A program made the position numbers and the translations under genes. Of a DNA stretch of 64,000 nt, positions 20,368-54,163 are shown piece by piece. Origin of the DNA: Candidatus Bathyarchaeia archaeon (GTDB taxonomy: Archaea; Thermoproteota; Bathyarchaeia; Bathyarchaeales; Bathycorpusculaceae); the NCBI GenBank assembly GCA_049512935.1, contig JBEKWR010000002.1:64001-128000 (forward strand), in the 5' to 3' direction. The notes beneath the pieces were generated by a model, which ran no database searches, was not told the origin of the DNA, and worked only from the letters and a program-made list of their open reading frames with translations. The first letter of the stretch is position 1; the number at the start of each line of letters is the position of its first letter.

Positions 20368-21302
20368 GCGACCACCCTATAGTCTGTTGCTTTTTCGACG
20401 AACTCGTTCCAGGTTGGCAGCATTGAGTCGGCTTGACGTTTGTGAGTTTTTAAGAATTGTTGCATGGAATCGATTTGACTTCTAATGCCGAGTCGCTGGG
20501 CTTCACTTAGCAGATATGCCGTGTCCAAGTTGTTCCCGATTTTCTTGAGCAGAAGAAGAGCATAAGTTGTGTACCTCGTGCTGTCTGGCTCTATTAACAA
20601 AGTGTGCAGTATAGCGTCTTCTGGCCGGATTTCCTTCTTGTTTTTTGAATAGAGGTAGATTTCGGATTCCGAGAAAAGAGGCAGGTCGTATTCCTGAAAT
20701 ATGGAAGTTGCAGTTTTGAGGAAGCCTTTCGGAGGTCGCTGCACTGTCTTGGGTGCGCGCATCAAAAACTCTCCGTCTTTTTGCCAAAGGATGACTGCGT
20801 CTTTTGAGGCGGTGGCTGCTATTTTTCTCAGAAAGAAATCTTGATATTCCATAAGGAATTCGGATAGAGTTTGAAAGCGGGAATTAATGGAGCCGCTTTG
20901 AGTGATTATTCCGCGGGTTTTCAAGTTTTTAAGGTGACGCCAAAGAGTGTTTTTGGGAATAGTAACTGCGTGATTTTCAGGTCCGTTCAGAGTTTGAAGC
21001 AGGATGTCTATTGCTTTGCCGCTTAGAACATTTTCCCAGTCAATGTGGCTATGGACTGATAAGAGATCGTTAAGCAATATTGCATGTTTTGAATCACTGA
21101 AGTAAGTTTGCTTTTTGAATGCATGCTGGGTTGTTTTAATAAGACCTTTTTGTTCAAGCTTCTTTAGGTTGTAGGAGAGAAGTTGTGGTGTCATTGAAAG
21201 AGCTTTCTCTATGGAAAATAGTTCGTGATTTCCTTTTGCTATCCCTTTTAGTATGGATAGCTCAGCTTTACTGAAGGTGTATTCGGAGCTTGCAGTTTTC
21301 AT
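20364..21302 (-). CDS. wHTH transcriptional regulator / AbiEi-like antitoxin partner
   Basis: Two wHTH-like segments and C-terminal LPTWNEF; 4-bp overlap with the NTase. Confidence 0.65.
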   Translation of the reverse strand: MKTASSEYTFSKAELSILKGIAKGNHELFSIEKALSMTPQLLSYNLKKLEQKGLIKTTQHAFKKQTYFSDSKHAILLNDLLSVHSHIDWENVLSGKAIDILLQTLNGPENHAVTIPKNTLWRHLKNLKTRGIITQSGSINSRFQTLSEFLMEYQDFFLRKIAATASKDAVILWQKDGEFLMRAPKTVQRPPKGFLKTATSIFQEYDLPLFSESEIYLYSKNKKEIRPEDAILHTLLIEPDSTRYTTYALLLLKKIGNNLDTAYLLSEAQRLGIRSQIDSMQQFLKTHKRQADSMLPTWNEFVEKATDYRVVA

Positions 21303-21495: not shown

Positions 21496-23604
21496 TCAGC
21501 TCGAGGGTTTCACACTCGGAGAGAAATTCAGCTTGTAGTCCGCCAGATTCCCTGCAAACATTTCTCTTAGTTCTCCGTCATCTTTAAGCCATTCTCCAGC
21601 GCCAAGCAGTACCCGGGTCATTTCCGTTCTTTCCCTTATCACTTTCAGTATTCGTTCTTCATAAGTGCCCTTCAAATCAAATAGATAGATTTCGACGGGT
21701 TCCTTCTCCCGAAAAGCTAGTGAGTTGATCCTATCGACTCGACCCACCCTTTGCTCCATGGCAGATGGACTCCATTCAAGGTCATAGTGCATGATTCTAC
21801 GGCAGGAAAGGTGAAGATCGATGCTCTCCCTTCCCTTTTGGCTGCAGATTAAGACGTAAGGAGGCCCCGGAAGGTTGAATGCAAACTGAGTGTGTTCAAT
21901 GGGTTTGTCTTCTTCCGATTGGTCGCCAGTTATTGTTGCCACATAATCGATGTGCTGACTAGGACCCCATGTTTCACTCCAGTATTTGATTTGAGGTTCT
22001 CTTCCAATTAGCTCCTTGTTTAGCTGATTTAGGACCTCGTCGATTCGAGAAGCGTCAAGATCTTTGAAGTAGTATGAAGCGAATCTGGCTCTATCAATAT
22101 TTCCAGAAAATTCTCGTCTATGCAGTGCCGCTCTAACTTTCACCCATTTCTTTGCGCCATCTTTCTGTTCCCTTTGGAACCTGTCTTTCAGGCGTTTTCT
22201 CAACTCACGTATAGTAGCGTTTCTCTCACAGAATACGACAATTTTCTGGAACGAGGTTGGGTTGCTCCTTACGATTCGTTCGATTTCCGATACAGCGAAC
22301 TCCAACTTTGGGGACTCGTTTCCTGCTGCCTTTGGAGGAAGGAATGCAACTACATCATTAAACTGCCCGCTCTTCTCGTTTGAATGCCGGATAGCACTAT
22401 ATGACGAGCACAGCGTCTCTCGATTGCTTGCTATATGCGGCCTCGCACCCCCTGAGAGCATTTCCATGAATTTGCTTTCCAAGGCGAAAGTGGCGAATGC
22501 ATGACTTGGCGAAGCCATCAAGTCCTGAGGAACATCTAAAATGTTTAATCTTCGCCTTTCCTTGCCATTCGGCCACTTATCTGGCCAGGTATTTCGAACG
22601 AGATATCTGCGAAGTTTGGTCTCTACCTGAGTCTTTAGGTCTGTCGAAGGTGGATCTCTCGTCCTTACAGCCGACCGGAATTCATTCAAGGTTTCCTTAA
22701 GTCTCGCAACTTCTGTTCCTTCGTTAATGATCGTCGCGGTATACAAGTCCTTGATTCGTTCGATAAGCTCATCGATGTCCAGTGAGAATGGGGTTGCAGT
22801 AACCAGCAGAGCTCTGTGTGCTTTCGAAGATAACACTTCTTGGAGAAAAGCGTGATTCTGTTCTCCGCCGAGTCTATGGGCTTCATCGAGAATCAATAAG
22901 TCTGCAGCTGTACCGGCAGGTCTTCGAGTTGAAAGAACCAGCCGTTGCAGATTTCGATATGCTCCGTAAACACTGACCCACTTGCCAGAATTACGATCAT
23001 AGTTATCAAACCAGAAACGATTCATCTGCTTTCTTGATACAGTTCTTGGGTTTTCAACACCTGTCCCTACGGGAACGTCAACGAGCCTCTGAGCTCTAAA
23101 TAGCTCTTTCAGAAGACGGCTTCGATTCTTGCCTCGCGGTGCATTCTTAGCATGGGCGAGTTTTTCAAACATATCTCTAACCTCATTGCCAGTTGTGTTT
23201 TTCATCGATTCATATGAGACAAAAGAGATCCCGGATTTTATTCGATCCAACCTATCGACTTCTTTCCCTTTTGGGAGGAACGAGTTTTCAACCTGTTTAG
23301 ACCTCAACAAATCCCAACGCTTCCTCCAGATTTGTGTCATATTGTTGTTGGAAGTGAGAACTAGAACCTTTGTTTCTGGGCCTTTCCTTTTGAAAACCGA
23401 AGCGGCAACTGCGAGAGAGACATAGGTCTTTCCCATTCCGACTTCATCAGCTAGTATCGCGCCAGGAACAGCATTCGGCCCATAAAGCCGTTCTAAAATT
23501 GCAGCGGCCGTAATTTTCTGTCGGGCAATGTCAGGAGCTTCGACCAATTCATCCAGATTTAGGTTGAGCCAATTCAAATCATGCACTGAAAGAGATTGGC
23601 TCAT
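21496..23604 (-). CDS. SNF2-like SF2 helicase
   Basis: ILADEVGMGKT (motif I), DEAH (II), TATP (III), ESIDL (V), EQRVGRVDR (VI). Confidence 0.88.
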   Translation of the reverse strand: MSQSLSVHDLNWLNLNLDELVEAPDIARQKITAAAILERLYGPNAVPGAILADEVGMGKTYVSLAVAASVFKRKGPETKVLVLTSNNNMTQIWRKRWDLLRSKQVENSFLPKGKEVDRLDRIKSGISFVSYESMKNTTGNEVRDMFEKLAHAKNAPRGKNRSRLLKELFRAQRLVDVPVGTGVENPRTVSRKQMNRFWFDNYDRNSGKWVSVYGAYRNLQRLVLSTRRPAGTAADLLILDEAHRLGGEQNHAFLQEVLSSKAHRALLVTATPFSLDIDELIERIKDLYTATIINEGTEVARLKETLNEFRSAVRTRDPPSTDLKTQVETKLRRYLVRNTWPDKWPNGKERRRLNILDVPQDLMASPSHAFATFALESKFMEMLSGGARPHIASNRETLCSSYSAIRHSNEKSGQFNDVVAFLPPKAAGNESPKLEFAVSEIERIVRSNPTSFQKIVVFCERNATIRELRKRLKDRFQREQKDGAKKWVKVRAALHRREFSGNIDRARFASYYFKDLDASRIDEVLNQLNKELIGREPQIKYWSETWGPSQHIDYVATITGDQSEEDKPIEHTQFAFNLPGPPYVLICSQKGRESIDLHLSCRRIMHYDLEWSPSAMEQRVGRVDRINSLAFREKEPVEIYLFDLKGTYEERILKVIRERTEMTRVLLGAGEWLKDDGELREMFAGNLADYKLNFSPSVKPSS

Positions 23605-25364
23605 GGCAATTGCTTCCTTAGGACAGGACTAATATCCTTCTTGATTGGTTTCACAATTCTTATCATTGCTCTCCAAGCTTTCTTACGTTTGTCTCGAGAA
23701 AGAATGAACTTAGCTATTTCGAACTTCGACCATTCGCGCCAATAAATTTCTGTTGGACTCAGACCGGCAACGTCGGAAGCGGAACTTATGCAGCCCTTTA
23801 GAATAGCTTGAACATAGTTGAGCTCAAGTTCTGAGTCTGCATCTTCAATCATAGCCGCGAGATTCGTCAGAGCCTCTCGTAGCGCTACCATACGTTCATG
23901 CCAAGGGAAAGTGGAGTCGCTCGTTGAAGATTTGAAAAGGTCAGTTGTTTGGGCCCTTGACAGTTCACTATCCGTGTTTTCGAAATCTCTTTTTCCAGAT
24001 AGGAGGGCAAGATATTGGTCGAAGGACCATTTTTTTTCCAATGTCGAGTCATCGCATACATCAAATGGACATTCTATGGGAACCCAATCTGCTTCAAAAC
24101 CAATCTCGACGATCGGATTTCTGGGCAATGTCGCCACTGCCCTTTCTGACCCGAATTTTGGGTCCGACAGATTGATTCCCTGGGCAGGATTGACTTCAGT
24201 CCCCGCAAGTGAAACGACAGTGTCTTCGATATTGTGTGGTACAATCCATTTAGGAATTAGTCTCTGAGCTGAAGGCTCGTATCGTATAGACTCTAAAGAT
24301 ATCCAGCGCTTAATTCGTGGTTTTGCTTGTGGTTTGATAAAATTACACTCTTTGAAGCTTACTTCTTTTGCCTTGGGCAAGAAATCCATCGGAAGCGACG
24401 GAGATGTATATTTCAATTGCCAAGCCAGTTCAACGTTGCCAGACTGAGTCCACTTTCGTAACATGGCGGCAGTCGTCGCATTCGGAGACCCTCCCAGCAT
24501 TTGCCAGGTACCCTCTGTGTATACAGCCTGCAGTTTAGCGTGGAGTGGTCTGGAATTCTCTCCGCCTACACGAAAAACTTTGATATGCACCCTATCTTTT
24601 AGGCCAGCGAAAGTAGACCAGCTACCAAAAACTCGACCATCCGGTGCTCCCTGCAGATAGATGTTAAGAGAGGCGGTCTTTGAGTAGGAGTGCTCGACTA
24701 GATGCGAAAAGTAGCCCTCGTCCTCCTGGTTCGCTTCGTCCTCAGCCTGATCGGTAAAGGGTGCGATAACATGAGCACGCGTCCAAGATCCACTCCAATT
24801 CCATTGCTCCCAAATCGAAGCGGTTTCTGAACTTGCAATAATTTGATCATTAATGCGAGGCGGAACATTCCCGAAGTGTTTCTTCGAATACCAAGCTCCA
24901 AATTTTGTGCTTGATCCGATACTTCCAAGTGGAAATGCCCAGCGTTCTATCGCATCCGGAAGCACCCAACCATCCCATTCGAAATATGAGAAGACCTCAA
25001 GATTCTTCTCCCAGCCACTAGGCGTCAAGTTTCCACTCCCGATGAACAATGCAGTCTTGTAGAGCTTTGAATCCTTGTTACGAAGCATTAGTGCAATTAC
25101 TTTGGGATGCCATAGGTTAGTCCCTGGATATTTGCAAACATCGTAACCTGCACCCTGACCATGGAAGTTATCTCCATCAACTATGACAGTAACTAGAAAA
25201 TGTCCCTTCAATTGGCCATGACCGCAAAGAATTCCATCAAGAACTTCGGTTTCAAAAAATGACCTGCGAAAAGTATATGTACAAAACAGTGCAGCTTGGA
25301 TTCTGCAATCCCCTATGGCTTGCACTATTTCGCTCCCCAGATTACTATAGCGGATTTTACTCAC
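23601..25364 (-). CDS. Phospholipase D-like nuclease with two HxK motifs
   Basis: WHPKV...IGSGNLT...NLE and LHAKL...GSPNAT...NVE. Confidence 0.8.
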   Translation of the reverse strand: MSKIRYSNLGSEIVQAIGDCRIQAALFCTYTFRRSFFETEVLDGILCGHGQLKGHFLVTVIVDGDNFHGQGAGYDVCKYPGTNLWHPKVIALMLRNKDSKLYKTALFIGSGNLTPSGWEKNLEVFSYFEWDGWVLPDAIERWAFPLGSIGSSTKFGAWYSKKHFGNVPPRINDQIIASSETASIWEQWNWSGSWTRAHVIAPFTDQAEDEANQEDEGYFSHLVEHSYSKTASLNIYLQGAPDGRVFGSWSTFAGLKDRVHIKVFRVGGENSRPLHAKLQAVYTEGTWQMLGGSPNATTAAMLRKWTQSGNVELAWQLKYTSPSLPMDFLPKAKEVSFKECNFIKPQAKPRIKRWISLESIRYEPSAQRLIPKWIVPHNIEDTVVSLAGTEVNPAQGINLSDPKFGSERAVATLPRNPIVEIGFEADWVPIECPFDVCDDSTLEKKWSFDQYLALLSGKRDFENTDSELSRAQTTDLFKSSTSDSTFPWHERMVALREALTNLAAMIEDADSELELNYVQAILKGCISSASDVAGLSPTEIYWREWSKFEIAKFILSRDKRKKAWRAMIRIVKPIKKDISPVLRKQLP

Positions 25365-26440
25365 AGCAAATCATTCCGCTTCATCATCCTGACAGCATTC
25401 GACCATCGGCAGTCACCGAGGGTGCTTTCGGAACGGCTTCCGTTATACTGATGTGTATACAGCTTACCGTCTGAAAAGCTTAACCATAGATCCGACTCTC
25501 CCCTTCGCCTTGCTCTAAACTCTGTTTCATGCCAATCGCAAAGCTCCCGAAGAGTCGGAGGTCGGGAAGCAAAGGCTCGTACTGAATCCCAACGAGTTCC
25601 CATTAAATCTTTAGGTGGCAACATCTTGAGTACGGGCCATGAGTCAATGGAAGATTTTCCATCGAATACGACAGAATTGAATACCTTGCGTACTTCATGA
25701 GACCATCTGCAGAATTCATGGGCAAATGACGATATTGGGCCGTAGCTTCCAAGCAGAGGAGCAGCATCATTCCACGCCTCTTTCTCGGACCAATTCAACC
25801 TCTCCATCGCACAGTATAGCTCCGGCATCTTAAGCTTGAGTCTCTCATGAAACTTTCGCCGGAAGCTCGCAAGATTCGCAGAGCACACCTGCTCGAAAGA
25901 TACTCGCCACTGACTCCAGTCTCCATTCGAGAGCCTAGGCGGCTTGTTTGCCCCCTCAGTCCAAACTAAGGCAGAATCTGTTAACATAATTCTCTCTCGC
26001 TCGACAATATCTAGACTTCTGAAAGGTTGCAAGTGTACGCCCAACAAACCCTGCGAACGTTGGTTATGCAGTACTGGGCGGTAAGGTTTTTTTTGAGGGG
26101 CATCTTCCTCGTCTGATTGTCTACGTGACAGTTCGATTCCATCAAAGCTTTTTTCGTCGTGCATTTTTGGGAACTTAGCCCATGTAAGCTTGAGGCATCT
26201 CTCCCACGAGAGAAAATTTCTTACAGCGTCTGGATCATTCTTAAAAGGAATCGTAGACCATCTTAGTAGAATTAGTGTCCAGAAAGCGTCTTTGACAGAA
26301 ATTGTCCTTCCAGTAAGGCAGGGAACAAGTCTATTACTGAGTTCTTCCCTCATTGCGTCGAGTCCTAGCGGATCTGGCGGATTGTTGTTTCGCTCGGGGG
26401 TCGTCCAGAATAAATTAGCCAATCGAACACTAGCGGTCAT
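25361..26440 (-). CDS. DUF6361-like hypothetical protein
   Basis: N-terminal DPLGLDAMREELSNRLVPCLTGRT resembles the D.LG...RD.FS..L.PG.S..T pattern. First gene of the overlapping triplet. Confidence 0.55.
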   Translation of the reverse strand: MTASVRLANLFWTTPERNNNPPDPLGLDAMREELSNRLVPCLTGRTISVKDAFWTLILLRWSTIPFKNDPDAVRNFLSWERCLKLTWAKFPKMHDEKSFDGIELSRRQSDEEDAPQKKPYRPVLHNQRSQGLLGVHLQPFRSLDIVERERIMLTDSALVWTEGANKPPRLSNGDWSQWRVSFEQVCSANLASFRRKFHERLKLKMPELYCAMERLNWSEKEAWNDAAPLLGSYGPISSFAHEFCRWSHEVRKVFNSVVFDGKSSIDSWPVLKMLPPKDLMGTRWDSVRAFASRPPTLRELCDWHETEFRARRRGESDLWLSFSDGKLYTHQYNGSRSESTLGDCRWSNAVRMMKRNDLL

Positions 26441-27237: not shown

Positions 27238-28026
27238 CTAAAGCTCTATTATGTCATAATCATTTGGGATTATGGTTTCACCCGAAAACCGGCTTGATGC
27301 TTCATCGAGTATTTCCTTTTCGGTTCCGTAAAGCAGATGGACAAGAACAAGTCTTTTGGCGCCTGATTTCTGCGCTAAATCAGCAGCCTCTCTAGCGGTA
27401 GAATGCTTTGTCAGCTCAGCAAGGCCATGCATTTTCTCGGTGCAAAAAGCTTCATGGATAAGAACATCAACGTCCTCGACCAAATCGCTCAAACCTTCAA
27501 AAGGTCGAGTATCCGGAACATATGCAATTGAAAACGAGGGATTTGCCATGTCAATTCGGTATCCGTATGCTGGAACCACATGCTGAAGAGGGATCGGTCG
27601 CAAAAGGGCATCTTTGTTTAATTGAATAACCGGTTGCTTTGCGATATCCTGATTGGTTATCTTGGTCATCTTCTCTAATTCGCTCAACTGGTAAGGAAAA
27701 AGGGTCTTGGTAATTTGCAATGTTTGGCTGTATACGACGCTATCAGCAAGTACATTGATTATCGAAGGAATTGGCTTTTGAGACACTATAGCTGTCCAAA
27801 ATGCATGGTAATACAAAGGTACCCCGAAGGTGTGGTCTCCATGAAGATGACTCAGGAATAGATAGTCGATTTTTTCAATCTCGTAGCCGAGCTTTGTCAG
27901 CCTAAGTGTAACGCTCCCACAGCACTCAGTTAGCAAACGTAATTTATCTGAAAAATCAATCAAGAAATTGGTGCTTTCTCTATGCAAAGGGAAGGTGTTG
28001 GTCCCAATAATTGCAATTTTGGGCAA
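27238..28026 (-). CDS. MBL-fold metallo-hydrolase, RNase Z-like
   Basis: SHLHGDH, HVVPAYGYRI, DT, HEA, HST, LVH motifs. Confidence 0.85.
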   Translation of the reverse strand: MPKIAIIGTNTFPLHRESTNFLIDFSDKLRLLTECCGSVTLRLTKLGYEIEKIDYLFLSHLHGDHTFGVPLYYHAFWTAIVSQKPIPSIINVLADSVVYSQTLQITKTLFPYQLSELEKMTKITNQDIAKQPVIQLNKDALLRPIPLQHVVPAYGYRIDMANPSFSIAYVPDTRPFEGLSDLVEDVDVLIHEAFCTEKMHGLAELTKHSTAREAADLAQKSGAKRLVLVHLLYGTEKEILDEASSRFSGETIIPNDYDIIEL

Positions 28027-28146: not shown

Positions 28147-29352
28147 TTACTTCTTCTTTCGATGGCAGATTTCTTTGACGGTTTTCTCGGGCAGATTATC
28201 GCCAAACGAATCCTTCGGGACGTACTTGATTTTGAAGTATCTCAGAGATTCTTGATAGTGTTCTCTCTCAATCACTCTAATCAAGCGTTCGTATGTCACC
28301 TTTCTGCAGATTTCGTTCTCCGAGTTGTTTACGAGAACGAACTTTCGGTCTCCTCCATCCTCTTTATTCAGGTCCATGACTGCATGTCCAGTAGTTCCCG
28401 AGCCGGCAAAGAAATCCAAAACTAACGCATGCTTCCCCCCTGCTACCCGAACAAGCTCCTTCACGAGCTTCATAGGCTTCGGAGTCCGAAACATGTCTCT
28501 TCTCCCCAGAATCTCCTCGAGCTCGTCCTTGGCGGATGATGTTGTCCCCAGTCCCTTCAGTATCGTTTCCATGTGGGTCGGAGTCTCTGCATACTCTTCA
28601 CCGCTCCTAGGTGAAGGCATCATCATCGAGCTGAAGTTCGTCTTGTTTTTGTCCTTGAAACAAGCAAAGATGTTCTCATGCACGGTTTTGATGTTGTGAA
28701 AGGGCCTTTCCACACGATTCTGATCAAACTTGGGATCAGTCTTGGGCCAAACTAGAACTACCACGTTGGCTTCGCCAAAAATAGTTTGACATAAGAGGAG
28801 CAGAGTGCCTGTTTCATGTTCGTCAATATGAATGAACATTACACCATTTTCTGACAAAAGGCCATATGCAGCACGGATTCTCTTGTCCATGAAGCTGAGC
28901 CACTTACTATGAACGTATGCGTCGCCAGCGTCTGCATAGTCATAATCATCGTAGTTCAAGGATTCCATCCCTGTATTATATGGGGGGTCGATGTAGATTA
29001 CGTCTACTTTCCCAGCGTAAGACTTTGATAGATGTCTGAGGGCCGCGAGATTCTCCCCTTCTATCAAGAGGTTTGATCTCTTGCCATTGTTGATCGCCAG
29101 TTTCCTCATTTCCGCCAGCTTGATGTCGTTCTTATCCAATAGTTTCTCTATTCCCTCTAAATGCTCTTCGAAGGTAAGGCCGTACCCAGTCTCGACTAAT
29201 GCCCGTCTCACGTCGTCCAGATAACGCAGTAGAGTAGGATTTCCCGAGGCCTTCTCGACGAACCGCCTCACAGCAGATATATGTCTCAGAAGTTCGTCGT
29301 TTCGCCTTCTCGAGACATTTGCGTTACCAGGCGCATGCTTCTTTTTACTCAT
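28147..29352 (-). CDS. Beta-class amino-methyltransferase, Type III Mod-like, apparently lacking the TRD
   Basis: LLIEGENL, IYIDPPYNTG (motif IV), TPKP, LDFFAGSGTTGHA (motif I). Only 401 aa, with a very short segment where the TRD normally lies. Confidence 0.85.
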   Translation of the reverse strand: MSKKKHAPGNANVSRRRNDELLRHISAVRRFVEKASGNPTLLRYLDDVRRALVETGYGLTFEEHLEGIEKLLDKNDIKLAEMRKLAINNGKRSNLLIEGENLAALRHLSKSYAGKVDVIYIDPPYNTGMESLNYDDYDYADAGDAYVHSKWLSFMDKRIRAAYGLLSENGVMFIHIDEHETGTLLLLCQTIFGEANVVVLVWPKTDPKFDQNRVERPFHNIKTVHENIFACFKDKNKTNFSSMMMPSPRSGEEYAETPTHMETILKGLGTTSSAKDELEEILGRRDMFRTPKPMKLVKELVRVAGGKHALVLDFFAGSGTTGHAVMDLNKEDGGDRKFVLVNNSENEICRKVTYERLIRVIEREHYQESLRYFKIKYVPKDSFGDNLPEKTVKEICHRKKK

Positions 29353-29360: not shown

Positions 29361-31133
29361 CTACGATCTAGTCAGCCTTGTGTGTGACCTCGAAAACGCA
29401 TGATCTGCGATTGAAACGTTCTTTGGCACTTCCAGGACTGCTAAATTAGGGCAGTTATAAAATGCCCAATCTTCGATTTGAATAACACTTCTAGGGATTT
29501 TGGCTTTCTCTAGTCGTACGCAATTGGCGAAGGCTCCTTTTCCTATGAGCGCGACTCTATCAGGGAGGGTGGCGGACCTAAGATTGCCACACCCGAAGAA
29601 TGCGTTCCGTCCTATTGTTCTAACGGTGCCAGGTATCACGAATTCCTCTTCAGGGTTACGCATTGAGTAGTAAACTAGCTTGGTCTTGGATCTGTTATAC
29701 AACACTCCGTTTTCATAGACAAAGTTAGGACTATTGTTGGTTAGTGACAGGGATGGACAGTTGGCAAAGGGGTTGTAGCCGATGACCTCAAGGGTGCTGG
29801 GAAGGGTCACGTTCGACAGGTTAACACAGCCAAAGAATGAATGCCTCTGAATGGTAGTGACCCCCTCTGGAATGGCGAAGGATTTGGAAGAACTGTTAAT
29901 TGCAAAATAGAAGATTGACGTCCTATTTTTATCGTACAACGCGTCGTTCTCGAAAACGAAGTAAGGGCTGTTGTTCACCAAACTCAAAGATGGGCAACTT
30001 GAGAATGGGTTATTCTCCACTATCGCTACACTGGGTGGAATTGTTATCTTCCGAAGGGCAGAACAACCATGGATTGCATGCTTACCTATGCTGATAATAC
30101 TATCAGGAATCTCAAAGACGCTAGCGGTGTTACTCATCGAGTAGTATATCAACCGGGTTTTCGTCCGGTCGTATAGCGCCCCATCCTCTAGAATGAAGTC
30201 CGGGCTCTCATTCTTTAGGATTAAAGCCGGGCAATTGCTGAATGGATTGTCCCCTATTACTGAAATATGCCGTGGAATAGTTAGGTTGACTAAATTGGTG
30301 CAATCGGAGAAGGTCTCACCGCCTAGGTTTGTAACGGTGTCTGGTATTGTTACCTTCATAATTTCAGGGCGGTCCCAGAAAACTCCATTTCTCAGTTTCT
30401 TCACGCCTTTCGAAATTGCTACTAGTTTCCCGTTACCGAGATATCTAATCAACTCACCGTTTTCAATCTCAAATTCGGAAGAACCAGAGGTTGCTTTAGC
30501 TCGTGTTGTTTTGTCCTGCTGGTTTGTTTTTTCCACAATAATGGGGTGGTAGGCTTCTATCTCTTCCTCGAATAATCCTGTAGTGCTTGAAACTGCTCTG
30601 CCTTTCAGAGCGTGGTCGGGTTTTGCGCAATTGCCTGCTGTGAGGGGGAACATTGTGTATCCGTAATCGATCAATCCGGACCTTAGTGTTGATGCATATA
30701 CACATAGGAATTGGAACTGCTTGTTTTCACTTGCTGGCAGGACAGGCCGGCTCTGGAGTACCTTAACGGCCTCGACTTCTTTGTCATATTCCTTGTCGTC
30801 CCATCGTCTACACCTTATTGCAATCAGCCAGTCGTCGGGTTCAGCCTTGATCGCAATATCACACTCATTGGTAAATCCCATATACAGGCTGCTAGGGCGA
30901 TAACCCTTTAACAATAGCCTGTCAGCACATTCGACGATGACGTAGTTTCTTTGGGTGAACCTTGCGAATGCGATATCACCCAGTCGTATCTTATCCCCGT
31001 AATCAATGAGTTCTTTAGCTAGGTCCACCTTGATTGTGTATTGGCCAGGATACCTCTTTTGATATACATTCTGAGAGACTTCGCGGTATCCGAGCTTCCA
31101 GAAGTAGTTTAGGGGATTCAGGATGTCTGTCAT
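29361..31133 (-). CDS. Fusion of a degenerate restriction-endonuclease-like N-domain and BspA/LRR_5 leucine-rich repeats
   Basis: N-terminal VECADRLLLKGY...CDIAI...IAIRCRRW resembles Type IIG/HsdR_N REase domains with ExK replaced by RxR. C-terminal IPxxVxxIxxxAFxxCxxL repeats. No signal peptide. Confidence 0.75.
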   Translation of the reverse strand: MTDILNPLNYFWKLGYREVSQNVYQKRYPGQYTIKVDLAKELIDYGDKIRLGDIAFARFTQRNYVIVECADRLLLKGYRPSSLYMGFTNECDIAIKAEPDDWLIAIRCRRWDDKEYDKEVEAVKVLQSRPVLPASENKQFQFLCVYASTLRSGLIDYGYTMFPLTAGNCAKPDHALKGRAVSSTTGLFEEEIEAYHPIIVEKTNQQDKTTRAKATSGSSEFEIENGELIRYLGNGKLVAISKGVKKLRNGVFWDRPEIMKVTIPDTVTNLGGETFSDCTNLVNLTIPRHISVIGDNPFSNCPALILKNESPDFILEDGALYDRTKTRLIYYSMSNTASVFEIPDSIISIGKHAIHGCSALRKITIPPSVAIVENNPFSSCPSLSLVNNSPYFVFENDALYDKNRTSIFYFAINSSSKSFAIPEGVTTIQRHSFFGCVNLSNVTLPSTLEVIGYNPFANCPSLSLTNNSPNFVYENGVLYNRSKTKLVYYSMRNPEEEFVIPGTVRTIGRNAFFGCGNLRSATLPDRVALIGKGAFANCVRLEKAKIPRSVIQIEDWAFYNCPNLAVLEVPKNVSIADHAFSRSHTRLTRS

Positions 31134-31134: not shown

Positions 31135-31737
31135 TTATGGAGACCTGCTTTGGCTATCTGATTTCAGGATCGGACGCAAGGTTTCCATCATGACTTCCAA
31201 AACTCCCTTCGCACTGAGGCTTGTAGTATCTATTGACTTGTACTTCATCGAGTACCTGATTAGGAAGCCTTCCATCTTCTCCTTGGACTCCTTGTAAAGT
31301 GCTACCTTTCGGAGGTCAGGGTCGCCCGGGTCTCTCTTTCGAAGCCTCTTCATACCTGCGTCTTCGCTGGCCCAGAGGAGGAAGGTGTAGTCTGGCTTGC
31401 CAATTAAGCCGATCAAGCATTGATAGATGGGTTCGGTCTTCTCCCCTCCGCACCAGAAGTAGTTTGACAGCAGATGTCTGTCAGTAATGATGTTCTCTCC
31501 GGCGAACTTGTGGTACAAGTATACGTTTCCAAGTCCGTAGAACCATGCTCTTAGGGCATCATCGTCTACCTGCTGATTGATGTAGTCTCTAATCCTGATG
31601 TAGTTTGTAAAACCTCCGTCAGGATCAAAGACGTAGTGCAGGGGCTTCTCGACGAATTTGAAGTTCAATTTCTCTGCCAGTTTCTTGGCTGCGGTGGTTT
31701 TCCCGACGCCGTCCATTCCCTCTATTGCTATGTGCAT
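31135..31737 (-). CDS. Thymidylate/deoxynucleoside monophosphate kinase-like protein
   Basis: IAIEGMDGVGKTT P-loop, ITDR and PD motifs. Start MHIAIEG at 31737 behind GGAGG. Confidence 0.8.
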   Translation of the reverse strand: MHIAIEGMDGVGKTTAAKKLAEKLNFKFVEKPLHYVFDPDGGFTNYIRIRDYINQQVDDDALRAWFYGLGNVYLYHKFAGENIITDRHLLSNYFWCGGEKTEPIYQCLIGLIGKPDYTFLLWASEDAGMKRLRKRDPGDPDLRKVALYKESKEKMEGFLIRYSMKYKSIDTTSLSAKGVLEVMMETLRPILKSDSQSRSP

Positions 31738-31747
31738 CAAATTCCTC

Positions 31748-33469
31748 CTACCAATCAAGGTGCGAAGTTGGATTAGGCCTTCTATGCGCGACCTCCGCTT
31801 TCTTGCCCGCGGTGAAGAAGCTAAGGTCTTCCAGATAGCCTGAAACTCGTCTCACCCGATATATGTCATTGCTGCCGCAACTCGGGCAATTGTCGAAGGT
31901 CCCAGTGAGGTTACATTTCAAGCATGTATCTAATGGAAAATTGATTCCGAGGTAGCTGACCCCGTAACTTATGGCAGCCTCGATGGTCTCAATAACCGCC
32001 TCGGTATTTTTCAATAATGCGGATGCAAATTCAACATACGAGATACATCCACCATTGCATAGCTCATGGAAGGGGCCTTCGAACCGCAACTTTTCTTTCG
32101 GATGTAAACCCGAGTCGACTTTGGTGTGGAAGGAGTTTGTGTAAAATCCCTTTTTAGACGCGTCATTGCCATAAATGTCATTGTCGATGGATGGAAATCT
32201 TCCAGAAACAAATTCGGCTGAAGTACCCAACAAGGAGAAGTTTAAGTTGCATTCTTTCCGGTACTTGTCCACCACATCTCTCATATGTCTGGCAATATCT
32301 ATGGCAATCGCATGGTTTTCCTCGGAGGCGTAGTATTCATGCCCAGTCAGGAGTTCCACCGTTTCTGATAACCCTATGAATCCAATAGCGAGGGTCCCAT
32401 TTTTGAAGACTTCTTCCAATGAGCCATTCGCAGGGAAGTCGTTTGCCCAGAGTTTGAACCTGAGATTGCAGGGAAAATCATCTGAGTCTAGCCTTAGTAG
32501 CCTGTTGTATCTGTCAATTAGGAGGTCTCTAACGATGTCAGCGGTCTTGTCCCATTCCTCCTTGAACATGTGGATCTTTTCAGCGGCATTAATCCCTGGG
32601 TATGACTTGTCTATCTCGAGGGCAATTCTCGGAAGGTTGATAGTGGTGAAGGCGATGTTGCCGCGACCTATGGCGGTGTTCTCGCCGAAGAGGTTATGTA
32701 CGACCCTTGTCCTGCACCCCATGATTGCCAGGTAGTGGGGATTGATGTTTTCATTGGGCTTGGAGTCGCAGAGCAGGTAGGTTGGTATCATCTTCTTGCA
32801 GGTTGACTCTACCGAGAGGCGGAACAGGTCAAAGTTGGGATCATCAGGCAAGTAGTTGACACCTTTCTTCACCTTGAAGATAATATTTGGTTTAATGCAT
32901 TCCATGGATGAGTCTTTGAAATGGTTCAATACTGAAGAGGTCACGAGCCTGGCGACCTTCCCCGTTCCGAGACCTATATTAAGCGAAACATAGTAACCGG
33001 TTTCTCCGGCTCTTTCCCTTGCCCGGTTTATCCAGTCAATGAACGCTACAATGGATTCGCTTAGAATCTGAAGGTTAGACTCAGTATCCGTGAGACCTAG
33101 TCTGTGGAACAGGGTCTCTACCTCTTCATCAAAGTTTGGAAAACCCATTCCGCCTGATTGTTCATTAGCAAGTTTTGCGATGACATCTTTGAAGTGGTCA
33201 AAAATTCCGAATATTCGGCTTGGCTCTGACACGCCATGGAGCCTGTCGAAAGGGAATCCGTTAATTGTGTTGAGCATAAGACAATTGTAGGTTTGCCCGT
33301 ACGCCTCGATGTTGTGAATGTGTATCTTCCCTTCACGGTGCAAGGTTGAGAACCTTGGGTCTAAGCTATTTAGGACCTCGCGCTTTCTGAGGTCTGCCCC
33401 CACCTCAAACACTGCTCCCATGAAAGATTTGCGCCTAGACGCATTATCAAACTTTGTTCCCTTAGACAT
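31748..33469 (-). CDS. nrdD: Anaerobic (class III) ribonucleoside-triphosphate reductase, no ATP cone
   Basis: IHIHN..YNC, EQSGG, MGCRT finger loop, INLPR, GFIGLSE, YTNSFH, CxxC..CxxC and RVSGYL glycyl-radical motif. Confidence 0.92.
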
Positions 33470-33908
33470 TCGCGTCCCCCAGCTCAATGAACTTCTGGTT
33501 GGAAGAGCCGACGTAGGGAATTGTTGTCGAACGTTTTTCTTGAAGGTATTTTCCCACTTTTATGTGTCTCAAGTATTTCATTATTTCCTTTGGTACCTGC
33601 TCGAGCTCGAAACCCGTGTAAAGCGCAATGTCAAAATCTGCAAGATTACGCACTAATTCGAGCACAGCTTGGTATTGTAATAGCGGTTCTCCTCCTGATA
33701 TTGTGAGTTTCTTGTTAAGCGACTTCGTGCGCAGCTCTTCAATGAGTTGCTCTGTATCAATGGTCTTCCCATTACTGATATCCCATGTAGAAGGGTTGTG
33801 GCAACCTCGACAGCTCAACTCGCAGCCTTGAACAAAGAGCACCGTCCTTATTCCCGGACCGTCTACCGTTGAGCCCCTGTAGTCAATCGAGTTAACCACG
33901 ATCTTCAT
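33462..33908 (-). CDS. nrdG: Anaerobic RNR activating enzyme (radical SAM)
   Basis: [36 protein letters not shown]. Confidence 0.92.
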
Positions 33909-33993: not shown

Positions 33994-34674
33994 TTATTTG
34001 AGAAGCATACAAGTTTCGGAAACCCATGCAAAATAAAGGTCAATTTCATCGATTCGTTTTGCAAGATAAGCCTTATTGGGAAAGGCCTTTATCCCGAACA
34101 AAGCCACAAATTTTGAGTAGTCACCAAACCACTTAGAGTCTTTGCTAAAAGAATGAATAAGCATCACTGCTGTTGAGGCGCCAAACCGTTTAGCTTCTAT
34201 AAGAGCGGAGGCTGCGCGATGAGTAAATTGGTAACGCACGTCTTGAAAATCGCGGAAGCGTATCCCAAGAAGACCGCTAAGGAAATCGAGTCGTCTAGTC
34301 TTGCCCTTTGAAGGTGTATTCAGCCACTCAGCAATGGTTTCTCCAAAAGGTTCGGATACTTTTCCTTCAACGGCTATAACGGCTAGGCCTTTTTTGAGTC
34401 TGGCTAACACAAGAATATCGTTCTGAGAAGGATGCCCACCACCAGGCAGGTATACTTTATGCTCGACAAATCCAGCGAGAAACTGTATCGGAATAAAGGC
34501 TTCATTTTCGCATAAAATATTCTCCACTGACTTAGGCAGCCCTTTTGCATTCATCCAGCAATAGGCTAATGTTTTAGCGGAGTATCCATCTTTCCATTGT
34601 CTGTCTGGCTCTGCTAGAAATAATTGCCAATCTTCCGGTTTCGAAGTTCTAACAAAGAAGGCCATCCTATGCAA
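33994..34674 (-). CDS. DUF6946-like PD-(D/E)xK nuclease-fold protein
   Basis: WKDGYSAKTLA, QNDIL...IAVEGKVSEPFG, RYQ. Confidence 0.7.
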   Translation of the reverse strand: MHRMAFFVRTSKPEDWQLFLAEPDRQWKDGYSAKTLAYCWMNAKGLPKSVENILCENEAFIPIQFLAGFVEHKVYLPGGGHPSQNDILVLARLKKGLAVIAVEGKVSEPFGETIAEWLNTPSKGKTRRLDFLSGLLGIRFRDFQDVRYQFTHRAASALIEAKRFGASTAVMLIHSFSKDSKWFGDYSKFVALFGIKAFPNKAYLAKRIDEIDLYFAWVSETCMLLK

Positions 34675-34721
34675 CCCAGTGAAATGATAACCAAGGTATT
34701 GTGTGAATGAAGGAAATAACG

Positions 34722-35699
34722 TTATCTGGAAAACACATTGTCTGGATCATACCCAAACCTTTTGAAGGATTCAAGCCTTAGCATCCAGGCAAAATAAAAG
34801 TATTCGTCAGCTAAGGCATCGGCAATGGGGTGAATAGCAACCACACCTGCCGATTGAGTGAAATGATCCCCATGCGTTACTGCCCTAACAGAAGACCTAC
34901 CATTTTCTAGTGCAAACTTGCCGTCATAGATGTGATGAATTGTCCACCCATGGTTAATGTCTCTACGGTTAGGTCGTTCTCCACCAGCAAGTAAATATGA
35001 CATAATCGCCGGTCCGTTCGTTCTTGTATCGACTAGGATTCCTTTTTCCTTGAACTTTCGAATTAACTCAGGTGAATAAGGAGGGGCCTTATCCTTTGGT
35101 CTAACTAGACCTGGAATTAGCAAGATGCCTTCTTTGGCCCATTTTATGTAGTCATCCTTGTTAGACCAAACTTCCAATATTATTTTCCGTTCAGATGGAG
35201 TAACTAGATCCAGTTTCTTTTGCAGAAATTCGGTGAATTGCTTTTCACCCATAAAAGAGATAGCCGCGCTTTGGGGTTGCTTTAGTAATTTGGGCTCAGG
35301 TTGCTGCATTGGAACCTGCTTTTGGCTGGTTAGACTTTTGCCAAGCATATCCCATCTATCTTTGTATCCCAAGATGAATTGCGATAATTCATGACTAAGG
35401 TCGAATGGTTGCCTCCAGGTGTATCTGCTGTTAGCGTATGCAGACGTTTGCCGTTTATTGAAAACAAATGGAAAATTGAAAAAACCATTAGCAGGCACTA
35501 CGCACGTTGGTCCTCCAGCCTTGGAGTAATCAAAAATTAAACAATAGTAATCCTTCCAAGCCTCGTCCCAACAAACCCAAATTTTGCCGTTCCTGAATTC
35601 CCTAGCGACGACTTGAACGATCTTGTCTCCATTAACCCAGTTGGTTTCTCGGTTTCTTTTATAGCCACGAGATAAGAGTTCGCTTTCAATTTTTTGCAC
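34722..35699 (-). CDS. Hypothetical two-domain protein with a C-terminal HNH-like His cluster
   Basis: WTIHHIYDG...HFTQSAGVVAIHP. Likely GTG start at 35699 behind GGAGG, just after the UvrD stop. Confidence 0.55.
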   Translation of the reverse strand: MQKIESELLSRGYKRNRETNWVNGDKIVQVVAREFRNGKIWVCWDEAWKDYYCLIFDYSKAGGPTCVVPANGFFNFPFVFNKRQTSAYANSRYTWRQPFDLSHELSQFILGYKDRWDMLGKSLTSQKQVPMQQPEPKLLKQPQSAAISFMGEKQFTEFLQKKLDLVTPSERKIILEVWSNKDDYIKWAKEGILLIPGLVRPKDKAPPYSPELIRKFKEKGILVDTRTNGPAIMSYLLAGGERPNRRDINHGWTIHHIYDGKFALENGRSSVRAVTHGDHFTQSAGVVAIHPIADALADEYFYFAWMLRLESFKRFGYDPDNVFSR

Positions 35700-35710
35700 T
35701 TTTTTGCCTC

Positions 35711-38700
35711 CTAGTCGCATAAGCATTTGTAGTCGCATTGGGTGCATTCCCATGTGCCTTTTTTGGGCTCAAACGCTGCTGCCTTAATTTTAGCTGCCAT
35801 ATCTGCGATTTCGGCTTGCATAGCATCAATGGCTTGTTTTTCAGGTTCGAAAAACACTTTTTCGTTTGAGCGCAAGAACCAGTTTCCGACCTTCAATGGA
35901 TTGCCATCCGGATAGATCTCTTTGACGGCAAGCGCGTAAACTAGCATCTGCATGTCCTTTTTGAGTTCATTTAGCGATGGCGCCTTCTTGCTGGTCTTAT
36001 AATCAACTACGGTGAAGCCGGATCCGTCCTTGTCGATGCGGTCAATTCGTCCTCTTAGTTTAACGTCGCCGATGGATGTTTCAAACCAGCGTTCAATATC
36101 TACGATCTCCGTCGTGCTTTTTCCTTGCTCATCCAGAAAAACCTTCAAAATGGCCTTGGCTTCATCGTAATCTCTCTTTTCATCAATCTTTGATTTGTAG
36201 CCTTTTGGATCCCAGAATTTGGCTAAAAGATCCAGAGCGACTGCCTCGTTGATGTCTGAACCGTATTTTTGCATCCTGGTTAATTGCTCCGCGATACTGT
36301 GAAGCGTGGAACCGAAGTCAAAGTAATATCTGGGCTTTTCAGGAATCTTCATGACATGACGGTACTGGTAGAGCCTGGGGCATTTTTTGTAACCGACAAA
36401 TTGTGATACGCTAAAAACGTGGTCCTCGGTGACTGTAAACGGTAGCTCTTCACAATGCTCAAGTGTTGAGTAGTCAGGTTCAGCTATCTTTTCTATCAAT
36501 TCAGTCTTGATGTTGAGGTTCTTATCGGTTGATTTTGCGTAGAGAAGGACATCTTGGATTGCTTCTTTGAATTTGTTGGTTGTGAGATTAGACATTACTT
36601 GTCTCATGAGGCGTGTTTGTGTTTCGTCTTCTATTGTGGTTGACTCAGTTGGTATTTCTTGAGAGTCAACTTGGTTAAAGACAATGTTTTCATTGTTCTG
36701 ATAGTCTATTTCGGATAGGAATCTTGAGGGTTTTGAGTCGGTCTTATTCTCGCCGTACCGTTTGGCATAAGTTACAATCAGCCTCTCTTTTGCTCGGGTA
36801 ATGGCTACATAGAAGAGCCTTCTCTCTTCTTGGATATGGAGTTCTTTTTCTTCAAATTTGGATTGGATGCCTTTGAGCAGTTCTTTTGGTATGGCGAATT
36901 TGTCCCTTTGATAGGTTGTTGGTAGCCTGCGTTCAATAACGTCTGGAATTATCACTACTGGGTATTGCATGCCTTTGACGCCGTGAATAGTGGAGATGAC
37001 TACGGCTTGTTCCTCGAGGTTCTTTTCTTCGATTTCGAAGTTTGCGGCAAAGGATAGGTAATCAGTGAAGTCTTCGATGTCGTTATTTGGATAAATGCTG
37101 TCAAATTCTTCCGCAAACTCGTAAAACTGGTTTAGAAGCTGGATATTTCGGTCATTTTTAAGCGCTATTTCGTACTTATAGAATTCCCTTTCAAAGAGCA
37201 AAGTGTGGATTAGATCGAGTGTTCGTAGTCTCTTCTTGGATCCAAGCATGTCAGCGAGAGTGTGTTTGACTTGGAGGAACTTGAATTTGTCAACGTCTAT
37301 CTCATTTAGGTGGTCGAAGACTTCGTACAGTGAAAGTTCGTTTTGGTCTGCATAGCAACTGAATTTGCAGATATCTATTTGTTTGATGCTGAAGTTTTGG
37401 CGGTTTAGGATCCTGACGATTTGGGCGTTGCTTTCCAGCGGGTTACTGATTATTTTGAGGTATGCTGAGACGTCTTTTATTATTGGTTCTTGGAAGAATC
37501 CGGTTTCGCCGACAAAATTGAACCGTATTTTTTGTTTTCTGAAGGCTTTTATTATTGGTTCAGCGGTTGCTCTTCGCCTGCACAGAACTGCTATATCTTG
37601 CAGGGGATATTTTTTGAGGAGCTCTTTTACTTCTTCAAGAATATAGTTGGCTTGCGAGCTGTCGGTTGGAGTCTCGATGACTTCTACCTTTTCTCCTTCA
37701 GGGTTGTTTGTAAAGAGTCTCTTAATTGTTCTTTCGGGGCTATTTTCTATCAGTTTGTTAGCCACAGCTACTATTTTTTTGATGCTACGGTAATTGTGTT
37801 CCAGCGCTTTTTCGACGTAGTTGGGGAACATTTTTTTGAATTCTGCAATGTTGGTTAGGTATGCGCCTCGAAAGCGGTAGATGCTCTGATCGTCATCTCC
37901 TACTACGGTAATATGGCCGTGCTTGCTAGCGATGAGATAGACAATCTGCAATTGTATGTAATTTGTATCTTGGAATTCGTCAACTATAACAAACCTGAAC
38001 TTTTCTTGATAGTTTCGCAGAACGAGCGGTTTGTTTTTCAGTAGATTGAGTACTGTGCAGAGCATGTCTCCAAAATCTATCATGTTATTTTGGAGTTTGT
38101 AGTCTTCGTAGGCACGATAGATTTTTAGAATATCTTTTAGGTTGTTTAGGTCTTCTTGTGCTTCTTCGTCAAGTGAGGCTTTTTCCTGTTTCCCGATGTA
38201 GTGCTGTATATCGTCTGGGCTTATGGCTTCGTCTTTGCATCTTGAGATGAACTTTCGCATTTCTTCCGCTAAGGTGTAAGGTTCATGATTAAATTCCAAA
38301 TGTTCAATGCCAAATCGGTTAATGTTTTTAGTTAGATAGACCAGTTGAGCGGTGTCTGTGATCACCTTAAAGTTTGCATTAAGTTTAGTGTTTAGAATAT
38401 TGTCTTGGATGACTTGGTTGCAGAACGAATGAAAAGTGGATATGCTCAGGTCCTCAGAGGTTTCTAGCATACCCATGACCCTTACTTTAAGTTCCTCTGC
38501 AGCCTTCTGATTAAATGCCAATGCTAGTATGTTCTCGGGTTCTGCACCCTGTTGGATCAAATAGGCGATTTTGCTAGCAACAGTAAGTGTCTTTCCCGAT
38601 CCGGCACCTGCAATTATTAGAAGTGGGTTATCAATTTCTCTTACAGCTTCTTTTTGTTGAGGATTTAAGGAGGCAAATATGTCCTCTGTTGTTTCTGGTA

Positions 38701-38722
38701 ATCGAGAGTTTGCTGATTGCAT
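35711..38722 (-). CDS. UvrD/PcrA SF1 helicase fused to an Fe-S PD-(D/E)xK (AddB/Cas4-like) nuclease
   Basis: AGAGSGKT, VDEFQD, VGDDDQSIYRFRGA, EERRLFYVAITRA. C-terminal CPR...GRIDRID...DYKT...CxxCxxxxxC. Confidence 0.92.
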   Translation of the reverse strand: MQSANSRLPETTEDIFASLNPQQKEAVREIDNPLLIIAGAGSGKTLTVASKIAYLIQQGAEPENILALAFNQKAAEELKVRVMGMLETSEDLSISTFHSFCNQVIQDNILNTKLNANFKVITDTAQLVYLTKNINRFGIEHLEFNHEPYTLAEEMRKFISRCKDEAISPDDIQHYIGKQEKASLDEEAQEDLNNLKDILKIYRAYEDYKLQNNMIDFGDMLCTVLNLLKNKPLVLRNYQEKFRFVIVDEFQDTNYIQLQIVYLIASKHGHITVVGDDDQSIYRFRGAYLTNIAEFKKMFPNYVEKALEHNYRSIKKIVAVANKLIENSPERTIKRLFTNNPEGEKVEVIETPTDSSQANYILEEVKELLKKYPLQDIAVLCRRRATAEPIIKAFRKQKIRFNFVGETGFFQEPIIKDVSAYLKIISNPLESNAQIVRILNRQNFSIKQIDICKFSCYADQNELSLYEVFDHLNEIDVDKFKFLQVKHTLADMLGSKKRLRTLDLIHTLLFEREFYKYEIALKNDRNIQLLNQFYEFAEEFDSIYPNNDIEDFTDYLSFAANFEIEEKNLEEQAVVISTIHGVKGMQYPVVIIPDVIERRLPTTYQRDKFAIPKELLKGIQSKFEEKELHIQEERRLFYVAITRAKERLIVTYAKRYGENKTDSKPSRFLSEIDYQNNENIVFNQVDSQEIPTESTTIEDETQTRLMRQVMSNLTTNKFKEAIQDVLLYAKSTDKNLNIKTELIEKIAEPDYSTLEHCEELPFTVTEDHVFSVSQFVGYKKCPRLYQYRHVMKIPEKPRYYFDFGSTLHSIAEQLTRMQKYGSDINEAVALDLLAKFWDPKGYKSKIDEKRDYDEAKAILKVFLDEQGKSTTEIVDIERWFETSIGDVKLRGRIDRIDKDGSGFTVVDYKTSKKAPSLNELKKDMQMLVYALAVKEIYPDGNPLKVGNWFLRSNEKVFFEPEKQAIDAMQAEIADMAAKIKAAAFEPKKGTWECTQCDYKCLCD

Positions 38723-38850
38723 GTCAGTCTTTTAAAAGCGATTCTAAATTTAACTCTTCCCTGAAGACGCTTTTTTCAGGGTTGATTTATCTCGACTATC
38801 GCTTCTCAAAAAGTTTCTAATTAGCGTACAAAGTAAATGCCATAGTCCAA

Positions 38851-39285
38851 TTACACTCTGCAAATTAGTCTGTGGCATTGGTTGGTTTTCATTACCTTGA
38901 CGCCCTTTTTTGCCAGTTCCTTTTTCACGTTACCTTGAAAATCGCTATCCTCTGAAACAAGGATTTTATCAGGAGTTCTTATAGAGACACAAGCGAAACA
39001 ATTATCCATTTCCTGTAAATTGCCAATTTGGAACCCTATCCCCGGTCTCTTTTTTACTTTATTTCTCAATCTCATATTCATAAACCAAGTTATAAGCGTC
39101 TGATTACCATTTAAATGAGGATTGTATTCTCGTTCAACAATTTTTCCTTCGTTATCAACGGCGATAGATTGATTTTGATCATTAAGGATTCGCCAAATTA
39201 ACTCGCTAGCTTCACTGTTGAAATCACTGCCGTGCTTGGGCGTTGCTAATTCCAAAATATTCGTATCAAGAACCAACATCACCAT
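38851..39285 (-). CDS. PIN-domain protein
   Basis: LVLDTNIL ... D ... LVSEDSDF acidic PIN motifs. Confidence 0.72.
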   Translation of the reverse strand: MVMLVLDTNILELATPKHGSDFNSEASELIWRILNDQNQSIAVDNEGKIVEREYNPHLNGNQTLITWFMNMRLRNKVKKRPGIGFQIGNLQEMDNCFACVSIRTPDKILVSEDSDFQGNVKKELAKKGVKVMKTNQCHRLICRV

Positions 39286-45184: not shown

Positions 45185-45213
45185 TTATGTTACCCTAAGC
45201 TTGATTTATCCTT

Positions 45214-52037: not shown

Positions 52038-52591
52038 GAATACAAATCCTTATCAGCTGTAATGGGAAAGGCAAGGTAATTCCAGCCATCATACGCATTA
52101 AATAAACGGTAATTATTATGCTCATCATAGGTTCCGGGGAAAAAAACCAGTAACCTTCCTTCAAAAGCAGGCGCCAATGCATTAACAACTTCTTTCACTT
52201 TTAAAAATCCGAAAAGTGAACCAACACCCTTCAAAGCAACAACCGTATTTCTATTTATTTTGTGAGCTTTAAGAAAGCAATCAAACTCTTTCTTAATAAA
52301 TTCAAGATACTGGGGCAAGAGAGCCGAAAGAAACTCGGGGTTCTTAAAATAACTCTTCTTGTAACGTTGATTTGCAAGCCACACTGCAAAAGTGTCAGTT
52401 AGGTCAAAGACAGCCCATTCATGTCCAGCTTGTTTAGTTACAATTTCGAACTCATCAATCTTGGCTCTAAGCTGAAGTTCATCATCCTCTTTATAAACGC
52501 AAAAAATAACGCGTTGAGGGGCAGCGACATCTTCCCAAGGTAGAGCAATATGAACATTGTACTTTTCAATAAGTCGCTTAATTCTGTTCAT
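52034..52591 (-). CDS. brxB: BREX protein BrxB (DUF1788)
   Basis: GRLLVFFPG...YRLF...DGWNYLA motif; position after brxA. Confidence 0.88.
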   Translation of the reverse strand: MNRIKRLIEKYNVHIALPWEDVAAPQRVIFCVYKEDDELQLRAKIDEFEIVTKQAGHEWAVFDLTDTFAVWLANQRYKKSYFKNPEFLSALLPQYLEFIKKEFDCFLKAHKINRNTVVALKGVGSLFGFLKVKEVVNALAPAFEGRLLVFFPGTYDEHNNYRLFNAYDGWNYLAFPITADKDLYS

Positions 52592-54160: not shown

Positions 54161-54163
54161 CTC

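Follow-up and report, generated by a model that had tools for sequence, protein, structure and literature searches.

Phages are established users of pre-replicative base modification with a dedicated kinase, and prokaryotic viperins, together with associated kinases, make abnormal nucleotides. Mod enzymes are specific for adenine. To our knowledge, no reductase has been described that is devoted to a modified base or that acts as a defence component. The Metis system senses m6dAMP from degraded DNA via MisA and MisB (bioRxiv 2025.11.05.686725). For single enzymes, the respective papers state that cleavage by BsaXI requires E73, D90, E105 and K107 (PMC11997821); that C171, C416, N435, E581 and G711 are key residues of P. 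copri NrdD, in which a flap Asn binds the base amino group and a loop-2 Gln contacts the substrate (PMC11226230); and that Arg70, Ser97 and Gln101 of S. aureus TMK bind a thymine-based inhibitor (PMC10610096).

The window, i.e. the whole 64,000-nt stretch of DNA analysed here, contains a cassette of five genes, which overlap or sit at most 8 nt apart and run in the order nrdG, nrdD, NMP kinase, LRR gene and Mod-derived methyltransferase (Table 1). The combination of a radical enzyme with an NMP kinase offers an analogy to viperins and their kinases for making an abnormal nucleotide, but the cassette has no viperin, its radical-SAM protein is NrdG, and it adds a reductase, a methyltransferase and an LRR protein. 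Like Metis, some operons of which carry a methylase (bioRxiv 2025.11.05.686725), the cassette may use an N6-methyladenine nucleotide; unlike Metis, it possesses synthetic enzymes and lacks MisA and MisB genes, and no Pfam family of a MisA metallophosphatase, a MisB HAD phosphatase or a type II membrane effector was found among the five genes. Our verdict is that this five-gene system is real and undescribed. As for its function, we tentatively favour an anti-phage defence in which the five genes, controlled by the LRR protein, would yield an N-methylated deoxynucleotide, probably m6dATP; this reading is drawn from sequence.

Table 1. Features of the cassette; positions refer to the window unless a locus is named.
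Feature	Position	Strand	Remarks
nrdG, radical-SAM activase	33462..33908	-	Pfam Fer4_12; heads the cassette at every locus
nrdD paralogue without ATP cone	31748..33487	-	radical residues kept, base contacts replaced
NMP kinase, thymidylate-kinase fold	31135..31758	-	P-loop and DR motif intact; thymine contacts replaced
LRR protein gene	29361..31133	-	590 aa; pseudo-nuclease and BspA-type LRR
Degenerate HsdR_N/BsaXI-type PD-(D/E)xK domain	30534..31133	-	residues 1-200 of LRR protein
Active-site remnant	30807..30878	-	G86, D92, R107, R109 vs BsaXI E73, D90, E105, K107
Three 79-aa repeat modules	29544..30254	-	residues 294-530, within LRR region 219-590
Type III Mod-derived amino-methyltransferase	28147..29352	-	DPPY and FAGSG intact; TRD and C-terminal tail largely missing
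PF01261 TIM barrel gene	L001:11824-12579	-	
PF01261 TIM barrel gene	L002:13391-14179	-	
PF01261 TIM barrel gene	L005:9165-9935	+	

A scan of GTDB genomes, using patterns that fit only one clade and so do not reach the Bacillota clade, gave 112 pattern matches, eight of which are relatives. These come from two Nitrososphaerota-type archaea, three methanogens, Planctomycetota, Myxococcota and Poribacteria, and all eight loci carry the five genes in identical order at 39-79% identity. A further complete cassette lies on the gut phage PV036423.1 beside the phage's own serine recombinases; its LRR protein, from a sister clade, has an N-domain trimmed further. Pairwise distances of the five genes correlate with one another (rho 0.71-0.94) while the hosts are unrelated, and cassette GC differs from that of the flanks in several hosts, e.g. 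0.31 against 0.51 and 0.43 at locus L003. From these congruent distances, the phage copy and the deviating GC, it follows that the cassette moves as a block; the five genes are one co-inherited unit. At locus L002 an IS66 transposase (L002:11230-12642) splits the LRR gene and the remaining four cassette genes are intact. In three of ten loci a xylose-isomerase-like TIM barrel gene (PF01261) stands between the LRR and methyltransferase genes, in either orientation, and in proteins P0216 and P0219 this barrel is fused to the methyltransferase, so that it appears to be an optional sixth component.

The same chemistry could also serve self-protection: a mobile element or prophage would make m6dATP (or m4dCTP), its own new DNA would be methylated irrespective of sequence and escape restriction, and the LRR protein would set the timing. 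A complete cassette next to recombinases on a temperate phage, the deviating GC and the established phage strategy mentioned above all speak for this explanation. We nevertheless regard it as unlikely, since the kinase was matched in only one of 50,697 phage records and in none of 72,556 plasmid records, and since the other nine cassette copies are found in cellular contigs, that of the window among defence systems.

In the defence reading, control lies with the LRR protein, whose N-terminal part shares fold and sequence ancestry with BsaXI (Type IIB) and with IIG-like enzymes of the composition HSDR_N_2, N6_Mtase and Methylase_S. A likeness of this part to restriction endonucleases had been proposed in the first-pass annotation of this DNA, and several searches agree with it. 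Residues 13-161 match the start of the PADLOC Type IIG model PDLC03624 (E 2.2e-14). For a predicted structure of residues 1-200 (pLDDT 87.4, leaning on a 116-row alignment of mostly active relatives), the BsaXI endonuclease domain was the top Foldseek match (E 9.4e-6) and BsaXI entries were the only matches with E < 0.001, so the anticipated PD-(D/E)xK fold was indeed found. Structure comparison of the same residues gave Z 7.5 (rmsd 4.1 over 116 aligned residues) and 7.3 for HsdR nuclease domains and 6.8 for BsaXI; values of Z < 8 are modest, yet restriction-fold proteins dominate the match list. An Atlas model of the N-terminal domain reached TM 0.81 to restriction-modification proteins. No match was obtained in PDB sequence searches with residues 1-200 or with a nine-sequence profile, and the domain was not found in plasmids. 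A profile of nine N-domains had 497 matches with E <= 0.001 among 1.84 billion representatives, many of them 1000-1400 aa long, and the two such long relatives that were scanned consist of HSDR_N_2, N6_Mtase and Methylase_S. The gamma-class methyltransferase and TRD of these enzymes are absent from the LRR protein, where Pfam finds only LRR_5 after the N-domain.

The active site of this domain has decayed. Its ExK position reads R107-C108-R109, as annotated at first pass; three of the four BsaXI cleavage residues are replaced and D92 matches BsaXI D90, and the upstream catalytic Glu (BsaXI E73) is gone together with a loop of 8-9 residues. E68 was considered as a catalytic remnant and rejected, for it is common to the IIG and LRR groups and aligns with no BsaXI cleavage residue. 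We aligned 171 N-domain sequences, comprising 89 of IIG type, 27 LRR-bearing ones (the query and some near-duplicates included) and 55 fragments that were set aside. All four cleavage residues are present in 88 of the 89 IIG-type sequences and in none of the 27 LRR-bearing ones, 23 of which keep one. The loop ahead of the catalytic Asp comprises 14-18 residues in the LRR-bearing group vs 18-25 in the IIG type, and in a tree with 40 sampled IIG domains the degenerate domains form a group of their own (support 0.78). At the level of conserved residues, these comparisons confirm a predicted nuclease-dead N-terminal domain with family-wide degeneration. Counting against uniform loss of the nuclease site, fragment P0036, one of the 55 set aside, falls in the LRR group or its sister clade and has D and ECK, with the first Glu absent. 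Such partly intact motifs, also seen in fragment P0132 (D and ECL), may be decay intermediates.

Pfam assigns LRR_5 as the sole family to the 590-aa protein (E 1.1e-57). NPF occurs at residues 296, 375 and 454, giving three 79-aa modules that are 37-51% identical to each other, and self-similarity peaks at 1.30 at lag 79 compared with at most -0.36 across 200 shuffles. The three supermodules of about 79 aa and the LRR_5 turns described in the first-pass annotation are hence real, and so far as hydropathy tells, its cytoplasmic placement also stands: the query has no signal peptide or membrane helix (best 19-residue mean 1.11), and no leader or anchor is seen in the 27 LRR-bearing sequences including the query (best 19-residue mean <= 1.26). 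These relatives also establish that the fusion is not unique to this genome. The repeat region measures 370-377 aa in 18 full-length sequences, with a fixed number of repeats, and at positions where the repeats differ among themselves any given repeat holds nearly the same residues in all 18 (W253, G271-G272, K351-H352, E373-N374-N375, R430, G452-Y453-N454, R509 and W556). Fixed repeat number and invariant repeat-specific residues disfavour the variable specificity subunit that had been suggested; from its sequence the protein looks like a receptor for one fixed ligand. Likewise, DNA binding by the dead nuclease domain, also suggested at first, found no support. The N-domain is less conserved than the LRR region, its net charge ranges from -18 to +4 and the family does not conserve the basic RCR, which argues against both DNA binding and a variable specificity role. 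In a full-length model built from nine sequences, residues 108-218 lie below pLDDT 50, and Foldseek with this model gave matches to the LRR part only. The protein differs from both of its closest described relatives: from BsaXI and IIG-like enzymes by three of four replaced cleavage residues, a shorter loop and LRR instead of a gamma-class methyltransferase; and from BspA/TpLRR (LRR_5) surface proteins, with which it shares repeat type and solenoid fold, by its 79-aa modules, a repeat number that does not vary, invariant residues on the surface, the absence of a leader and an anchor, and a place in a cytoplasmic operon.

Adjacent to the LRR gene, the methyltransferase shares with Type III Mod proteins (EcoP15I Mod, Mbo45V) the beta-class order of DPPY then FAGSG, both motifs being intact in 10 of 10 cassettes, and Type III Mod proteins are its best matches in PADLOC and PDB. 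It differs from them in lacking most of the TRD and the C-terminal tail, and in having no adjacent Res. The spacing from DPPY to FAGSG is about 85-100 residues below that of the solved Mods 6k0w and Mbo45V, and alignment with P0236 and P0263 shows as a gap the TRD insert and C-terminal tail of relatives of 540-548 aa. No adjacent res gene was detected with one Res probe over the ten loci, at two of which (L007 and L008) little sequence follows the cassette; the only match was a separate Type III restriction-modification locus near the cassette of L003, in pieces and on the opposite strand (L003:14691-19401). REase_III had no match among 29 window proteins. Among the best 120 matches of the methyltransferase (P0164-P0282), spacing is short in 89, long in 24 and unscorable in seven. 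Source names at the top of the list include Thermoplasmata, Heimdallarchaeota, Lokiarchaeota and Patescibacteria, so that the cassette may be much more widespread. The LRR protein aligns with two Atlas clusters of 527-aa proteins, which have 83 and 115 members, and with two of Bacillota proteins of 802 and 806 aa, which have 60 and 217; every member of the latter two has LRR_5 and N6_N4_Mtase. Since the 437-470 aligned residues exceed the 372-residue LRR region, we read the 802- and 806-aa proteins as putative fusions of the LRR protein to the methyltransferase. This and the fixed adjacency support the link between LRR protein and neighbouring Mod made by the first-pass annotation; that nrdG, nrdD and the kinase, with altered pockets, belong to the same co-inherited unit had been missed.

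From these data the LRR protein might also be seen as standing in for the lost TRD, so that both proteins would form a two-subunit DNA methyltransferase, while kinase and reductase would salvage or sense methylated nucleotides from genome degradation in a Metis-like manner. We consider this distinctly unlikely. The methyltransferase does derive from a DNA-modifying Mod without its TRD, LRR-methyltransferase fusions exist, m6dAMP is a known danger signal and some Metis operons have their own methylase (bioRxiv 2025.11.05.686725). On the other hand, m6dAMP derived from DNA is already a deoxynucleotide, which would leave the remodelled reductase without a role; the LRR residues do not vary, basic charge is not conserved in the dead domain, and the cassette contains no MisA-like effector. 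Under the defence reading the methyltransferase would instead act on ribonucleotides.

In the kinase, P-loop and DR motif are intact in 10 of 10 cassettes. The thymine-contacting Arg, Ser and Gln of TMK correspond in the window kinase to N78, N99 and C103, as mapped by counting from the motifs, and read Asn, Asn and Cys or Ser in all ten, Ser being found in the phage copy. The thymidylate kinase model TIGR00041 scores 49 bits against a cut-off of 83, and PADLOC VakA is weakly matched (E 1.4e-9). The enzyme is thus probably a monophosphate kinase other than thymidylate kinase.

NrdG carries CxxxCxxC in 10 of 10 cassettes and scores 113 bits as NrdG vs 24 bits as viperin. Its partner NrdD shares the radical residues and the triphosphate and zinc motifs with formate-type class III RNRs (P. 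copri, T4 NrdD), the five key P. copri residues having their equivalents in C69, C258, N277, E425 and G550 of the window protein. It differs from those enzymes in having no ATP cone, in the changed NxN flap, loop-2 Gln and TPxE Pro, and in its long separate branch. In the window copy the flap Asn is S17 and the loop-2 Gln is T163, and Y166 and S423 are also changed. The flap Asn (NxN), the loop-2 Gln, the Phe following it and the Pro of TPxE are kept in all 11 control NrdDs, which are distant sequences from plasmid and phage records in a sample without close non-cassette NrdDs, and in none of ten cassette NrdDs, where they are replaced by Ser/Ala, Thr/Val/Tyr, Tyr and Ser, respectively; the phosphate loop is changed as well. 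A long branch separates the cassette NrdDs from the 11 controls. Eight of the ten have a Gln immediately ahead of the loop-2 position, and in the phage NrdD an Asn directly follows the flap position; base contacts may thus be shifted, not lost. The cassette NrdD, as read from these alignments, keeps the residues of radical chemistry and has its base-contacting residues changed. A class III reductase without a highly conserved substrate motif in every copy would be a surprising lead even if the defence reading fails.

The reductase could itself be the effector, skewing or draining NTP/dNTP pools when the LRR protein senses infection, with a protein or small regulator as target of the methyltransferase. 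In favour of this are the missing ATP cone at 564-588 aa, the changes in loop 2 and phosphate loop, and the attack on nucleotide pools as a common defence theme (PMC12265719). However, control NrdDs of about 620 aa are also without a cone and keep the pocket intact, and the changed kinase pocket would be left unexplained; we therefore hold this explanation to be improbable. That ordinary anaerobic dNTP-supply genes hitch-hike with a decayed restriction-modification locus, or that the LRR protein is a surface adhesin, is very improbable and already largely refuted: each part has a routine annotation and BspA repeats resemble surface proteins in the PDB, but the five-gene order is fixed across domains with congruent trees, the pocket changes occur in all copies and the 27 LRR-bearing sequences have neither leader nor anchor.

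In the reading that we favour, the LRR protein would be a non-catalytic cytoplasmic control subunit of a mobile five-gene cassette making a non-canonical deoxynucleotide. The methyltransferase would act on a ribonucleotide, free or within RNA, and methylate its adenine at the exocyclic amine; the kinase would phosphorylate the methylated monophosphate, and NrdD/NrdG would reduce m6ATP to m6dATP under anaerobic conditions. We infer this line of methylation, phosphorylation and reduction from an amino-methyltransferase without TRD, a monophosphate kinase other than thymidylate kinase, and a reductase without the exocyclic-amine contact. Methylation is placed at the ribonucleotide level because only a base methylated at that level would call for a reductase, which would also set the cassette apart from Metis with its m6dAMP from degraded DNA; m6dATP is the simplest product, Mod enzymes being specific for adenine. 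In mammalian cells, m6AMP is known to reach DNA by a comparable route. The product may poison or mark replicating phage DNA, or serve as a signal. The LRR protein would bind the methyltransferase and hold it off until a conserved trigger occupies the repeat surface, a switch suggested by its being adjacent or fused to the first enzyme, and the dead nuclease domain may be a structural or docking remnant. Against m6dATP as a defence product counts that it is deduced from three pocket changes, which N4-methylcytosine or no methylated base at all fits too, and no toxic effector is evident in the cassette.

It is possible, and we put this more cautiously, that the cassette represents an undescribed immune pathway common to archaea, bacteria and prophages. 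An LRR receptor derived from a dead nuclease would then activate a methyltransferase of nucleotides rather than of DNA, and kinase and retuned reductase would yield m6dATP as antiviral nucleotide or second messenger. If true, prokaryotic nucleotide-based immunity would gain a reductase, a kinase and a methyltransferase retooled for a methylated base, a control by an LRR receptor, a type better known from eukaryotic immunity, and a route from restriction enzyme to sensor. Models for the LRR region and the NrdD are absent from PADLOC, and full-text literature searches, with subscription papers and supplementary tables of large defence screens beyond their reach, found no published description of the five-gene cassette; such sources could contain it as a candidate without a name.

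The window cassette shares its island with BREX, Azaca-like and further defence genes and with an integrase. Apart from the window, only L003 has clear defence neighbours, and they are sparse elsewhere; PADLOC gave no convincing system match on the flanks of L001, L005 and L009, those of L002, L007 and L008 being left out. Searches for island markers found neither a tRNA gene nor an Rfam match nor a convincing attachment-site repeat, and promoter and terminator counts are at chance level. An RNase Z-like metallo-beta-lactamase gene (27238-28026) follows 120 nt downstream of the methyltransferase. This MBL hydrolase and the DUF6946 gene were rejected as cassette parts, being absent from the eight loci and the phage and lower in GC3. 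On the other side, positions 33994-40642 hold the DUF6946 protein, a 343-aa protein, a UvrD helicase-PD-(D/E)xK fusion and, matching NsnB/HEC-03B, an AAA_15 ATPase whose 144-aa partner is PIN-like by eye. The BREX locus (40785-56107) comprises BrxL, PglZ, BrxC, PglX, BrxB and two BrxA copies, as well as a stand-alone PAPS-reductase-like gene (54164-54910) with a match to SspD/BrxP. A three-gene Azaca-like or PDC-M27-like set at 21496-26440 encodes an SNF2 helicase, a PLD-like protein and a 359-aa protein without match, and at the island edge (19528-21302) an HVO_2833-like HTH and a DUF6036 nucleotidyltransferase form a possible toxin-antitoxin pair. Upstream of the phage cassette (L009:4312-5581), a 225-aa protein is followed by a 205-aa protein in which a nucleotidyltransferase-like motif is seen by eye, both without a PADLOC match. 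Upstream of the cassette at L005 (L005:241-1050), peptide repeats in spurious ORFs suggest a candidate CRISPR array.
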